Virus record (IMG/VR): IMGVR_UViG_3300025229_000001
Reading direction: 5' to 3' (one strand)
Origin: a virus
Length of the DNA: 64,000 bases
Below are positions 7,267 to 35,029 of this stretch, in pieces. Position 1 is the first letter of the stretch. The number at the start of each line of letters is the position of its first letter. The notes below the pieces were generated by a model. The model made no database searches and was not told the DNA's origin. It was given only the letters and a program-made list of their open reading frames with translations. The translations under genes were made by a program, and so were the position numbers.

Positions 7267-9030
7267 TTACTGCGAGCCGCCGCCGAGCGTATTGCCTGTC
7301 CCGCTGTTCGAAATGTTTGTCGTGTTAGCGAAGTAGACATTCGACTGCACATTGACAGACTTGGAGCCCGACCCGAGGAGGATGCCCGTTGTCATTTCCT
7401 GAATCGCATTAGCCGTAATCACACCGGCGCTCGACGCCCAGGTGTCGATATATATGCCGCGAGTGCCAGTCGGAGATGCAACGGCGGGGTTGAATGTGTT
7501 ACCGATGATGCTGAATGCGCTGTAGTTCTGCAACGAAATCCCGTTGCTGTTGTTCTGGACGAGAAAAAAATTGTTGGCGATCATGATGACACCAACGTTC
7601 GACTGGGTAAGGATGCCGTTGTTGTACGTGTTGAACTGACTATTCGTCACGCTCAACTGGTCGAGCCCTGCCTGGCCAGTCGGAACAACGATCCCGTTGG
7701 TGTCGCCAGTGAAGTTGCTCTGGTTGACAGTAACTCCTTGCACATAGGCCGCGTAGTAAAGGCCAATGCCAAGATAGTTGAAGGTACAGCCCTGGAAGTT
7801 GTACACGACGCCCAAAGCGGTTGCCGTACCGTTCAGAATGACCCCATACGATGCGGTTGATGGGCCGATCGTAGTGACGTTCGTGAAGTTGATGTTGGAT
7901 ACGCTCGCGACATTTACGCCATTGGACCACCCGTCAGTGGCAACGTACCCGTCAGCGCCACGGGTCGTGACATTTGTGATATCCGAGAGAGCGGAGTTGG
8001 CCGGATTGGCGATGGTGCTCTGCTGCTGCGCCAGGTTGATTGCAACCCCAGTCGGCGTTGATGCCGTCGTGGTGACTGATAGATCCCTGATGTGGATACC
8101 GGAAAACGGACCGTTTGCTGCGATCGAAATTCCGAATGATGTGGCATTGAATTTCAGAATCGACGAGTCGGCTGCAACGCCTTTGATGGTGATCGAATTG
8201 GGGTTGGTGTTCGGGAAGGTATATCCGATGCTCGATGCGAAGTAATACGTGCCTTGCGGAAAAAATACGCACACGTTGCCCGTCGACTGGGCGGCTACTG
8301 CATTCGTCCAAGCGGCATTGTTCGATACGACGCCGCCGTTGTTGCCACCGTAGTCAAGTATCGACGGGCAGGGCGAGTGGGCGGCGACAAATGCCGCGTT
8401 GGCTGCCGCAGTGCTGTTCGTGCCTACTGCCGGCGTCGGAACGGTAGGCACGCCCGTTAGGTTGGCATTGGAAATCGTAGGTGCCGTGCCTAGGACGATC
8501 CCTCCTGACGACCCAGTCACTGTTGCCCCCAATGCGGAGGCAACTCCACTGCCGAGGCCTGTCAGACCCGAGATCGGAAGACCCGTGGCGTTAGTAAGCG
8601 CGACTGAGGACGGCGTACCGAGGTTCGGGGTAACAAGAGTAGGACTAGTTGCGAGAACTGCCGAGCCTGAACCTGTTGCCGTCGACGCTCCCGTCCCGCC
8701 TTGAGAGACGGACAGCGGCGTGGTCAAACCGGAGAGCGAGGTAATGTTGCTGTTAGCTCCTGCGGTAGCCCCACTGGAGCTGTTCAGCAGGGTTCCGCTG
8801 GTCGGCAACGTGATATTAGTGGAGCCCGTCGTGTTCAGCACGAGGGAGTTGCCGCCAGTGGTCGAAAAATTTCCTCCAAGCGTGATCGTTCCCGAGTTCG
8901 CGACGCCGGTTCCGCCATTGGCCGGCGTCAACGGATTCTGAAGCGTAACGCTGTTGAACGTGGGTGATGGGTAGGTCTGGGCGAGCGCCGCCAGCGGCGC
9001 AAACAGCGCCGTGATGATGATTTTCTTCAT
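7267..9030 (-). CDS. Tailspike/fibre with beta-helix (pectate lyase 3-like) depolymerase domain and signal-peptide-like N-terminus
   Basis: GGTG shaft repeats; SILDYGG...AWTNA...VFFPQGTY; Asn-rich coils; MKKIIITALFAPLAALA-Q. Confidence 0.8.
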   Translation of the reverse strand: MKKIIITALFAPLAALAQTYPSPTFNSVTLQNPLTPANGGTGVANSGTITLGGNFSTTGGNSLVLNTTGSTNITLPTSGTLLNSSSGATAGANSNITSLSGLTTPLSVSQGGTGASTATGSGSAVLATSPTLVTPNLGTPSSVALTNATGLPISGLTGLGSGVASALGATVTGSSGGIVLGTAPTISNANLTGVPTVPTPAVGTNSTAAANAAFVAAHSPCPSILDYGGNNGGVVSNNAAWTNAVAAQSTGNVCVFFPQGTYYFASSIGYTFPNTNPNSITIKGVAADSSILKFNATSFGISIAANGPFSGIHIRDLSVTTTASTPTGVAINLAQQQSTIANPANSALSDITNVTTRGADGYVATDGWSNGVNVASVSNINFTNVTTIGPSTASYGVILNGTATALGVVYNFQGCTFNYLGIGLYYAAYVQGVTVNQSNFTGDTNGIVVPTGQAGLDQLSVTNSQFNTYNNGILTQSNVGVIMIANNFFLVQNNSNGISLQNYSAFSIIGNTFNPAVASPTGTRGIYIDTWASSAGVITANAIQEMTTGILLGSGSKSVNVQSNVYFANTTNISNSGTGNTLGGGSQ

Positions 9031-25170: not shown

Positions 25171-26190
25171 TTAGAAGCCGGCGCTGACGAGCGTGATGGC
25201 TTCGGGGCGCGGCGCCCAGCCCGACGTCGAACGCAGTTCCGACACAACGTCAACGGCACCAGCAGGAAGCGGTGCGATGATTTCAGTCGGAGCGGCGCGG
25301 TCGACGAGCTGGAGCGAGCATGCGTCGAGACCCGGCGTCAGTTCGGCAAACACGTTCGTGTTGATCTTGTTCACGCGGTTCTTCTTCACCTCCGGCATGG
25401 AGATGATGATCAGGTCGGTGCCGCCTGCGCCCTTGCCGATGAGCGTGTCATCGCAGGTCCAGGTGATCTCATCCTTGTTCCAGCCAGCGACGTCGTCCAC
25501 GAGACCGCGGATCGACTTCGAGCCCGCGCCTTCACGCTGGAATTGCGTGAGCTGGACGATGCCGTAGTAGCTGATCGCCTGCATGATGCGCTGGGTCGTC
25601 AGCACCGTGAAACGGGCCGGGACGCCAACCGTCATCGTGCGCGTCTTGATCGCAGCGATCTGCTGTGCGAGGAAGAACGCCAGCGCGCCGTTGTCGTACG
25701 TCGAGATGGTCGTGTTGCCATTCGGGTCGGCCGGCAGGTTCAGTGCCGTGGCGCCGTTCGCGTTCAGCAGGCCTTCGCCGTTCGCCGGGTTTGCGCCGTA
25801 CAGCAGCAGGTTCCGTTGTTGCTGGAACGTGCCCTGACGCATTGCCAGGCGATGGGCTTCCACGGTCGATGCGCCAACGCGGCCGAGAGCAGCCGTGTCG
25901 TGATGATCGTATTCAGCGCGCGAACGGATCATGTACGTCGGCGTGCTGATTTCGTTGTACACGACCGTGCACGACGGCAGCGCATTGGCCACGAACTGGC
26001 CGGTCTGCACTTGCGTGCGGACGTCGAGGCGCTTGATGTAGACGGCTAGGTCGCCCTCACCGAGACGCACGAGCGGGTCGCCAGTTGCGATCGTGTCGAA
26101 CGCGCCCGATGCCTGTTGATACTGCAGGAGAAGTTCGGGAACCACGTACGACGGGTTGACCCGGATTTGTGCCGGTACGATATTGGCCAT
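25171..26190 (-). CDS. Major capsid protein (DUF2184-like, HK97 fold)
   Basis: 339 aa; LLYG...GEGLLN; follows decoration gene; AGGA RBS. Confidence 0.85.
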   Translation of the reverse strand: MANIVPAQIRVNPSYVVPELLLQYQQASGAFDTIATGDPLVRLGEGDLAVYIKRLDVRTQVQTGQFVANALPSCTVVYNEISTPTYMIRSRAEYDHHDTAALGRVGASTVEAHRLAMRQGTFQQQRNLLLYGANPANGEGLLNANGATALNLPADPNGNTTISTYDNGALAFFLAQQIAAIKTRTMTVGVPARFTVLTTQRIMQAISYYGIVQLTQFQREGAGSKSIRGLVDDVAGWNKDEITWTCDDTLIGKGAGGTDLIIISMPEVKKNRVNKINTNVFAELTPGLDACSLQLVDRAAPTEIIAPLPAGAVDVVSELRSTSGWAPRPEAITLVSAGF

Positions 26191-26199
26191 GTTCTGTCC

Positions 26200-27084
26200 T
26201 TAGATCTGGATAAGGGCCGCGTAACCTTGACGATTCCAGGTAGCTGCGCCGGTGGTTGCGTTGTAGGAGACGGTCATGCTGTTGCCAGCGCTGATGTCCA
26301 GGATCTTGACGGGGAGGGCGCCCGTGCCGTAGTTCAGAACGATCGTGCCCGCCAGAGCGCCCGTCGCGATCGCGCCCGATGCGGCCGTGATCTGAATCGA
26401 GAAATGCTGGTTGTCGGTGAATGCCGACACGGTCTGGTTGCCGTTCACGAGCGCTGCGCCCGTGCTGGTCACGCCGCTGATGTTGATGAGGTCGCCCACA
26501 CCAGCCACCGGCGAAGCCGCAGCCATCACGATGGCGATCGTGTAGACGCCATTGGCATACGACGAAGTTGCCGACGTGACCGAGTAGGTCGCCGTGGCTG
26601 CGTCATACGGTTGCAGAACCTGGTTGTTGAAGTCCCACGACACCTGGCTGGTGATGAGGCTGCCGTCCAGCGATACGAGCGACGGGTCCATTGCGACCGG
26701 AATTGCGATGCCCGAACCGAGACGGAAAAACGGCACCGTCATGCCTGCAGCGCCAGCTGTCGGAACCGGGCTCGACGGCGAGCCAACCCATGCGTATGCG
26801 TTGTTGAACACCGTGAAGCCGGTGATGTTCGCAACGGCCGATGCTTCCACAATCGTGCCGCCCAGCGTGCGGTCGTAACCCGATGCCGGAGCGATGCTTT
26901 CCGAGATGGCCATGCCGCCCCAGATGGGACGCGTCGCGCTTGCCGACACCGTGCCGACTGCGAGCGAGTAGCGCGTGGCCGGAGCGTCCTGATAGACGCC
27001 CTGAACGTAACCAGCGCTTTGTACCGAGAACGAACCTTGAGCATTCGTAGTCGCGTACGGGTAGAAAGGCGTATTGAGTGCCAT
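26200..27084 (-). CDS. Capsid decoration/cement protein with inserted beta domain
   Basis: Between scaffold and capsid; PIWGG.AI, VPFFRLGSG pattern. Confidence 0.7.
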   Translation of the reverse strand: MALNTPFYPYATTNAQGSFSVQSAGYVQGVYQDAPATRYSLAVGTVSASATRPIWGGMAISESIAPASGYDRTLGGTIVEASAVANITGFTVFNNAYAWVGSPSSPVPTAGAAGMTVPFFRLGSGIAIPVAMDPSLVSLDGSLITSQVSWDFNNQVLQPYDAATATYSVTSATSSYANGVYTIAIVMAAASPVAGVGDLINISGVTSTGAALVNGNQTVSAFTDNQHFSIQITAASGAIATGALAGTIVLNYGTGALPVKILDISAGNSMTVSYNATTGAATWNRQGYAALIQI

Positions 27085-27149: not shown

Positions 27150-29906
<2,757 letters not shown>

Positions 29907-34039: not shown

Positions 34040-34399
34040 CTAATTCACGCGCCAAACCGGAATAGCGCCACCGGCCTTGTTCTGTGCGTTGGGGTAGGTC
34101 GCTGCATGCGCAGGCAAACTCGTTGCGTCCCATATCGGGATCGCTCCGCCGTTCTGGCCTTGGTCGCTCGGAAACGGACCATTGCCCGCAGGAGCACTTA
34201 CCACTCGAACGGGAATCGCGCCCGCAGCCTTCGATTGATCGTTCGGCCACTGCCCTGATCCGGGCTGCGCGACGAACACGACCGGGATTGCGCCGTTCGC
34301 CTTGCTTTGGACGCTGGGCCACGGTCCGCTGTTCGGTTGCGAGACCAGATAGACGGGAATCGCCCCTGCTGCCTGATTTTGCGAGTTAGGGTAGGTCAT
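34040..34399 (-). CDS. Five-repeat protein of unknown function (119 aa)
   Basis: Five ~24-aa units [YWF]PxxQxxxxGAIP[VI]; start moved to MTYPNS. Confidence 0.75.
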   Translation of the reverse strand: MTYPNSQNQAAGAIPVYLVSQPNSGPWPSVQSKANGAIPVVFVAQPGSGQWPNDQSKAAGAIPVRVVSAPAGNGPFPSDQGQNGGAIPIWDATSLPAHAATYPNAQNKAGGAIPVWRVN

Positions 34400-34501
34400 C
34401 TCAATGTCCCGGCGGCACAATCACGCAAATTTGCTTGCGCCATAATCTTTGCCTTGCGTCAGGCTGTTCGCCGGACGTCCAAAATTCGAGGAGATCGAGC
34501 T

Positions 34502-35029
34502 ATGACTACGCCGTCAGCGAAGCCATCCACGTTGCGCAGAATGCGCGAGTCCGCCATGTCCCGCATCCGCGATGCGAAGACCCTTCGACAGTCAGATCCA
34601 CTGGGAGATCGGTCGGATTCCGATATCCTGCTTGACTTGCTGGCGCTGGAACTTCTGTTGAAGTGCGTTCTGCTGCTCAACGGTGCGAAGCCCGGCAGGT
34701 TTGGACACGCGTACGAGAAGTTGTTTGATCAGCTTCCCGCGGGAGTACGCGCCGATGTGCTCACGAAGGCGAAAACTCGGATCGGTCCCGGTAGCGGATT
34801 GGATGCCGACTATCCCGGCGTACTTGAACGCCTCGGCAGGAACTTCATTGAACTGCGTTATCCCTACGAGGCATATGAAGATGTAACTGATGGAGAATAT
34901 GTCGAAATGGGTGAAGAGTGGATTGCACTTGGCGCTCCGCTTGAATCTGCCACCGTTACATATTACCCAAGCGAGCTTTTTGGCCTACTAGAAGCACTGA
35001 CGGACATGACCGCGTCGCTCGCAAGCTAG
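34502..35029 (+). CDS. HEPN-like domain protein (moron)
   Basis: LALELLLKC...GHAY..LF...FIELRYPYE helical HEPN-type pattern; start moved to MTTPS. Confidence 0.6.
   Translation: MTTPSAKPSTLRRMRESAMSRIRDAKTLRQSDPLGDRSDSDILLDLLALELLLKCVLLLNGAKPGRFGHAYEKLFDQLPAGVRADVLTKAKTRIGPGSGLDADYPGVLERLGRNFIELRYPYEAYEDVTDGEYVEMGEEWIALGAPLESATVTYYPSELFGLLEALTDMTASLAS

Follow-up and report, generated by a model that had tools for sequence, protein, structure and literature searches.

The window considered here is a 64,000-nt stretch of viral DNA (IMG/VR record IMGVR_UViG_3300025229_000001), and its minus strand carries, at 34040..34399, a complete gene for a 119-residue protein (P0001) built of five tandem units. 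The reading frame opens with an ATG at 34399 and closes with a TAG stop at 34042-34040; a weak Shine-Dalgarno-like GGGA lies within 34400..34412 on the same strand, 8-11 nt upstream of the ATG. The Met at 34399, not the upstream TTG (34420), is the start in all homologues. The protein has a mass of 12.1 kDa and a pI of 9.3, and its composition includes 19 Ala, 16 Pro, 13 Gly, 3 Lys, 2 Arg, 3 Asp, and no Glu. The units are 24-26 residues long, follow the consensus [YWF]PxxQxxxxGAIP[VI], and each combine an aromatic-Pro-x-x-Gln loop with a G-A-I-P-V/I strand. Unit 1 (residues 1-24; 34328..34399, minus strand) is N-terminal, and its single-tag form is known from sister phages. Unit 2 (residues 25-48; 34256..34327, minus) consists of a WPxxQ loop and the strand AIPVVFV, and unit 3 (residues 49-73; 34181..34255, minus) contains the strand GAIPVRVV. 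Unit 4 (residues 74-99; 34103..34180, minus) includes the loop FPSDQG and the strand AIPIW, and unit 5 (residues 100-119; 34043..34102, minus) ends the protein, its strand AIPVWRVN being the C-terminus.

Successive IPV/IPI cores lie 24, 24, 25, and 26 residues from one another. Pairwise local alignment of the five segments gives a summed score of 557, as compared with 167 ± 13 (maximum 217) in 1000 composition-preserving shuffles (z ~30). At the DNA level only four copies are detectable, and these are just 62-73% identical, so the repeat is held at the level of the protein. The first-pass annotation had described five such repeats at a spacing of about 24 residues, with diverged DNA copies, almost no acidic residues, and no signal peptide, and all of this is borne out; for the last point, inspection of the N-terminus by eye finds no hydrophobic signal-like stretch. 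In 105 pairwise comparisons among 15 orthologues the median dN/dS is 0.08 (range 0.017-0.18; dS is saturated), a degree of purifying selection that supports coding and excludes the reading of 34040-34399 as a spurious open reading frame (ORF). The gene is real and under strong purifying selection, and each complete genome examined has one copy of it.

Downstream of the five-unit gene and on the same strand are genes for a PF18894 phage metallopeptidase, which begins after 38 nt, a DUF2280 (TerS-like) protein, and TerL. The gene had been placed in the late operon just before the terminase genes; it is indeed co-oriented with them and upstream, but it stands two genes ahead of the terminase pair and is not directly adjacent to it. 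Upstream lies a gene for a phrog_704 metallophosphoesterase, and the interval between the two contains a lone plus-strand ORF of 175 codons (34502-35029) whose product has no match in Pfam, PHROGs, or PADLOC. In most related loci (e.g., L001 and L006) the phosphoesterase and repeat genes are separated by only about 120 nt, and this ORF therefore looks like an insertion specific to the window phage and a few others. The head module of the window comprises the portal, a Nudix-protease-scaffold fusion, the family encoded at 26200-27084, the major capsid protein (MCP; 25171-26190, minus strand), and two head-completion proteins. The 26200-27084 product, encoded between the scaffold and the MCP, has no sequence match in NCBIfam, Pfam, or the PDB, and no homologue of a head-spike base is found. 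Residues 1-61 of the 641-residue scaffold fusion (28893-29075, minus strand) are 43% identical to the product of a small ORF at locus L020 (8379-8570), which is free-standing and lies just downstream of the repeat gene there; this N-terminal segment is thus a separate gene elsewhere and is fused in the window.

The five-unit protein had been called unrecognised, and it matches nothing in Pfam (E <= 0.01), PHROGs, NCBIfam, or PADLOC, nothing by tblastn in 50,697 phage records, and only noise in a sequence profile search of the PDB. Scores in the ESM Atlas are 0.84 or lower, which is chance level, and a literature search for the GAIPV motif returned nothing relevant. A profile search of 1.84 billion representative sequences recovers only 61 clusters, four of which are spurious matches to LRR proteins. 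Relatives are encoded on 22 viral contigs, 4 bacterial assemblies, and 23 metagenome contigs; on 17 viral contigs the orthologue is 78-91% identical. A search of 185,579 species genomes yields four GAIPV loci only: a prophage of Paraburkholderia phenoliruptrix LMG 22037 (L027, 87% identical) and three contigs of metagenome-assembled genomes (MAGs) assigned to Solibacteraceae, Rhodoblastus, and Pseudomonadota. The window-type MCP has 14 relatives in cultured phages, all at 54% identity or less (Klebsiella phages Chronis and RothC/D, Yersinia vB_YenM phages, Pantoea phage PdC23, and a few others), and none of these 14 carries a five-unit protein.

Judged from the aligned sequences, the GAIPV family is a fixed five-strand domain rather than a variable-number repeat. 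The variation in repeat number that had been anticipated among relatives is not seen; five strands are kept across the family, and variation is limited to the loops. Across 73 non-redundant members, conservation of the Pro is 93-100% at every one of the five A-I-P-V positions; that of unit 3 (Pro63) does not vary in the alignment of 96 sequences, and the Arg after it is nearly invariant in the short forms. The best-conserved loop of the family is FPSDQG of unit 4. About 60-70% of members lack the aromatic-Pro-x-x-Gln loops that precede strands 3 and 5, the one ahead of strand 2 is partly missing, and the long loop before the strand of unit 5 gives way to a turn of 4-7 residues in about two thirds of relatives. 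Minimal forms are 81-85 residues long, with only 4-6 residues between strands 1 and 2 and between strands 4 and 5, and strand-to-strand periods fall to 9 residues in some relatives.

AlphaFold2 models of the five-unit protein reach a pLDDT of 71 with 22 aligned sequences and of 93.6 (pTM 0.84) with 96. The latter model consists of five 5-residue strands with a helical turn before each. Comparison of this model with the PDB by Foldseek gives a best E-value of 2.9 and TM scores of 0.13 or less, and VIA-align, in which models without a match typically reach Z 7-8, places none of 48,161 chains at Z >= 2. The first, weaker model was likewise without a match in fold searches of the PDB; a search of BFVD with this first model retrieved three uncharacterised phage proteins at E ~0.2. 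AlphaFold2 may yield confident yet unrealistic models of repeat proteins (PMC11795689). As far as these searches tell, the predicted fold lacks a PDB neighbour and may be new. The symmetric small fold proposed in the first-pass annotation survives in part, in that the prediction is a small, defined fold to which each repeat contributes one short strand; the accompanying suggestion of a mini-propeller or lectin-like protein does not, since neither Foldseek nor VIA-align finds any resemblance to a propeller or lectin, nor to a beta-trefoil, beta-prism, or similar fold. A confident model without any PDB neighbour makes the family a good target for structure determination.

That the protein might instead be a degenerate member of a known repeat class, such as the plant-type 24-residue LRR, a curli-like repeat, or another beta-solenoid, is suggested by its 24-residue period, by the G-A-I-P segment (GxIP in the LRR), and by Asn/Gln-rich repeats that recall asparagine ladders. 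The family profile also matches four bacterial proteins with 24-residue LRR (NxLSGAIPxxL). These proteins (P0088, P0094, P0095, and P0099) are long arrays of the repeat NxLSGAIPxxLGNLxNL and score up to E = 8e-9 against the family profile; they were rejected as relatives, the resemblance being a coincidence of repeat pattern, with LxxLxL absent from the GAIPV proteins and a different spacing. None of the five units of the window protein contains an LxxLxL segment or LxxLxLxxN, and the spacing from Asn/Gln to Gly differs from that of the LRR. No Pfam match to the N-terminal five-unit domain is found in the 96 aligned members, even at E <= 1 for LRR and curlin, and neither Foldseek nor VIA-align finds a solenoid or LRR neighbour. 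The features of a CsgA-like curli amyloid are lacking as well: there is no PF07012 match, and no signal-like N-terminus is seen by eye. Periods as short as 9 residues in relatives do not suit a regular 24-residue repeat, and the 4-residue links that join their strands 4 and 5 speak against a simple parallel solenoid. Membership in a known repeat class is accordingly an extremely unlikely explanation. False positives among LRR proteins are to be expected of any HMM built for the GAIPV family.

The slot that the gene occupies upstream of the terminase genes was inspected in a scan anchored on the MCP, which covered 80 loci at 58-100% MCP identity; in 28 of these the MCP is at least 70% identical and the slot is covered. 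The five-unit protein is present in 12 of the 28. In nine, the slot encodes a protein of about 111-122 residues that shares only unit 1 with it, and in the remaining seven there are other small Gly/Ala/Ser/Thr-rich proteins or an Ig-containing protein. The single-tag proteins (L056:471-821, L057, L068, L076-L078, L081, L082, L088, and L091) begin with unit 1 at residue 3-6, which is followed by a Gly/Ser-rich linker and an unrelated beta body of about 75 residues. At two of these loci (L056 and L057) the MCP is 100% identical to that of the window; the five-unit and single-tag proteins are therefore allelic to each other, and the gene is accessory. The five-unit gene is absent from many phages with near-identical capsids, and its product is therefore not needed for assembly. 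Two more bodies stand behind a unit-1 tag at L030 and L053, and a tag-like start occurs at L083. In all, at least four types of body in this slot begin with unit 1. One small beta body, the third, with the motif IYDG[TL][ST]AAG, occurs with a GAIPV-type tag (L030:9532-9855 and L083:1985-2311) and without one (L104:3047-3328), indicating that tag and bodies assort independently. The alternative slot bodies have no relative in the PDB or, by tblastn, in the 50,697 phage records. The slot is hypervariable, and the five-unit gene within it is accessory.

A locus of unrelated small proteins that share only a short N-terminal sequence resembles the internal protein (IP) locus of phage T4, whose proteins carry a shared capsid-targeting sequence. 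Unit 1 could by analogy be a capsid-targeting sequence, and the slot proteins could be packaged in the head and ejected with the DNA; the prohead protease/scaffold fusion of the window phage would suit such a scheme. Set against it are the Ig-like, LamG, and glycoside-hydrolase domains of relatives, which act outside cells, and the occurrence of the tag five times within one protein, for which a cleaved targeting peptide would have no need; no protease site was identified either. Packaging within the head is thus very unlikely.

The same head module, of one soil myovirus lineage, is present at every GAIPV locus with enough flanking sequence, with the exception of L029, which has a scaffold-like gene only. 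The GAIPV gene is always co-oriented with late or structural genes, but its position varies among five contexts. In context (a), which is that of the window, the order is phosphoesterase, repeat gene, metallopeptidase (present or absent), TerS, and TerL; in context (b) a long form lies between TerL and portal (L051). In context (c) the gene follows the second head-completion gene and precedes the neck and sheath genes, encodes an Ig-bearing protein, and is followed by a gene for a small fibre-like protein (L021, L022, and L046-L049). Context (d) is a tail-fibre cluster, beside a Gp77-like fibre adaptor (L020), and in context (e) the gene overlaps a scaffold-like gene downstream of a primase-helicase gene (L029). 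Neighbouring proteins range widely in identity across loci (phosphoesterase 32-100%, TerL 37-97%). In a mirror-tree comparison, divergence of the repeat protein follows that of the portal and MCP (Spearman rho 0.72-0.73) and of TerL (0.67), and does not follow that of the phosphoesterase (-0.006). Co-divergence nevertheless says little about a physical partner, since the value for TerL is nearly as high and phages with an identical MCP carry another slot protein. The phosphoesterase was rejected as a partner of the repeat protein, both for the rho of -0.006 and because the repeat gene is also found away from the phosphoesterase gene.

These contexts bear on whether the product is part of the particle at all. 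A late accessory protein outside the virion, such as one that aids assembly as a chaperone or scaffold helper, takes over the host, or counters its defences, might be expected in a slot between replication/regulatory and packaging genes, a typical "moron"-like place, and the gene is non-essential and missing from sister phages. At L012 its start and the stop of the phosphoesterase gene overlap, and at L029 it runs into the scaffold-like gene. The Ig-like, LamG, and GH43 fusions of relatives are, however, hard to square with a cytoplasmic role; PADLOC gives no matches, and divergence that tracks portal and MCP but not the phosphoesterase speaks against this explanation as well. We regard a role outside the virion as distinctly unlikely.

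Several loci show rearrangements of their own. At L029 (2711-10965, the end of a Rhodoblastus MAG contig), genes for a primase-helicase and a DNA-binding protein precede the five-unit gene, the end of which overlaps by 16 nt a gene for a 210-residue protein homologous only to the C-terminal scaffold part of the Nudix-protease-scaffold fusion. This contig has neither a terminase nor a portal gene within reach, and it may represent a satellite-like element with capsid-modifying genes or merely another gene order. Among the relatives L008 and L009 (9701-10500), L015 (11544-12745), and L018 (2451-3411) the match to TerL is interrupted by about 0.8 kb; in L015 the match to the portal has a gap of about 1.2 kb, and in L018 TerL and portal are about 1 kb apart. 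An intron, intein, or homing endonuclease seems to have been inserted in these places, much like the TerL/HNH arrangement of a Brucella phage. In Pantoea phage PdC23 (L055) a small gene directly after the MCP gene (7292-7534) is annotated as an OB-fold Dec decoration protein and has no counterpart in the window, so accessory capsid decoration is variable in this head-module lineage.

Just over half of the full-length family members (48 of 88) consist of the five-unit domain only. A further 20 have about 100 additional residues, 10 have about 200, eight are 361-399 residues long in all, and two exceed 600. Apart from the insertion forms, the extensions are C-terminal to the five-unit domain, behind a Pro-rich linker. 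In 16 longer proteins the N-terminal five-unit domain is followed by one to three Ig-like domains, which are sub-threshold for Ig_3 and He_PIG; their best sequence matches in the PDB, although weak, are to the decoration protein pb10 of phage T5 (5lxk_A, E = 0.006; 8zvi_a, E = 0.019). The domain is followed in P0096 by Laminin_G_3 (2.4e-14) and in P0080 by a LamG-like domain and a GH43-like propeller (4qqs_A, 9e-8). A foreign domain interrupts the series of strands in three members; in two of these (P0045 and P0071) it follows unit 1, and the strand count is still five. The insert of P0045, between unit 1 and units 2-5, is homologous to Rcc01080, the head-spike fibre of the gene transfer agent RcGTA (NF048003, E = 7e-25; 6tb9_F3, E = 3.9e-9). 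P0045 stands alone, a protein from one short contig; a search for another of this architecture found none. NF048003 also matches 6 of 14 control genomes, and the domain is thus not head-specific; it is absent from the five-unit protein and from the whole 68.5-kb genome of the window phage.

Aromatic residues combined with Asn, Asp, or Gln are common in sugar-binding sites, and each loop of the five-unit protein pairs an aromatic residue with Asn/Asp/Gln. The five-unit domain could itself be the working head, similar to a lectin or carbohydrate-binding module (CBM), binding a host surface polysaccharide through its aromatic-Pro-Asn/Asp-Gln loops and anchored by unit 1 or by nothing. Fusions to LamG, GH43-like, and Rcc01080-like lectin domains are the usual company of a CBM, and in sister phages units 2-5 take the place of the other small beta bodies behind the unit-1 tag. 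Yet three of the motif-bearing loops are lost in most members while the strands stay, and selection is strongly purifying, with no sign of the diversification usually seen on receptor-binding surfaces. The constant N-terminal part is always the five-unit domain, whereas the carbohydrate domains vary, and no likeness to a lectin or CBM, in sequence or structure, emerges from the PDB profile search, Pfam, Foldseek, or VIA-align. Direct glycan binding by the five-unit domain is unlikely on balance.

Phage attachment proteins usually combine a conserved N-terminus with an exchangeable distal part. The constant N-terminus of the GAIPV proteins and the extracellular type of their exchangeable parts (Ig-like, LamG, GH43, and Rcc01080-like) lead us to read GAIPV as a docking element. 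We tentatively propose, at a little under even confidence, that the five-unit protein is a virion-surface docking module that in the window phage is without cargo. It would be a small accessory protein of the particle surface consisting of five tandem docking units of about 15 residues, [YWF]PNxQxxxxGAIPV, with one beta strand each. The GAIPV unit would dock the protein to a conserved virion site, more likely on the capsid than on the tail, and variable C-terminal parts, where present, would be displayed outward to bind or cut polysaccharide. The window protein would then be the cargo-less form, either a small decoration or cement protein or an adaptor; its lack of cargo means that reading it as an anchor requires this further assumption. 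The virion decoration considered possible in the first-pass annotation would agree with this proposal, and as a reading of sequence it fits the domain fusions and gene contexts. The head is favoured over the tail by the gene positions in contexts (b), (c), and (e), by the pb10-like Ig domains, by the Rcc01080-like insert, and by the restriction of the family to one head-module lineage; context (d), at L020, runs counter to this and points to the tail.

Known attachment and decoration proteins share some of these features. As in T5 pb10 and T4 Hoc, a small N-terminal domain is joined by a linker to one to three Ig-like domains in the long GAIPV relatives, and the gene is non-essential and accessory. 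In contrast to those proteins, the GAIPV N-terminal domain is unrelated in sequence and, as far as searches tell, in fold, and the window protein ends after unit 5 without an Ig domain. Tail fibres and receptor-binding proteins offer a parallel in the conserved N-terminus and in distal parts that are swapped between near-identical phages, and one GAIPV locus (L020) lies among tail-fibre genes, beside the Gp77-like fibre adaptor. Unlike tail fibres, GAIPV proteins are about 110-120 residues long, are mostly encoded near packaging and head genes, and have no trimeric-fibre features. The likeness to T4 internal proteins lies in a short shared N-terminal unit 1 on unrelated proteins of one variable locus.

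A more specific parallel is provided by RcGTA, in which one fibre chain per capsid vertex is fixed to the pentamer by residues 2-10, I-A-L-G-L-G-L-G-L, forming a "five-point star" whose five Ile/Leu side chains fit five pockets (PMC7296036; PMC10218006). The fibre Rcc01080 (PDB 6tb9; Bardy et al. 2020, PMC7296036) resembles the GAIPV proteins in combining a five-fold N-terminal repeat and a carbohydrate-binding body in one chain; the body of P0045 is homologous to it, and the number five is fixed. The systems differ in that the RcGTA anchor is nine residues long with a period of 2, whereas GAIPV units are 9-26 residues long, have another motif, and form an array predicted to fold; moreover, the window protein lacks a lectin body, and no homologue of the pentameric base Rcc01079 was identified. 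By analogy, a GAIPV unit might dock to one subunit of a five-fold capsid vertex, with five tandem copies filling all penton sites. Single-tag sister proteins would then bind one site each, and one five-unit chain would resolve the 5-to-1 mismatch in symmetry while offering cargo one point of attachment, as an independently evolved, folded counterpart of the RcGTA five-point star and probably with a new fold. This extension to the vertex is improbable, since the loops are not conserved five-fold, NF048003 is not head-specific, and P0045 is a single case.

If true, the proposal that the five-unit protein is a surface docking module would describe a very compact new phage attachment module, either a tag of about 15 residues or a 12-kDa five-tag domain, with which nature already attaches Ig-like, lectin-like, and glycosidase domains to a single capsid lineage. 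Docking at the five-fold vertex, if it occurs, would provide a second example from nature of a chain whose internal repeats match a five-fold symmetry. Such a module could serve as a natural display handle for phage engineering, and it would explain a hypervariable accessory locus in common soil (Burkholderia-type) phages.
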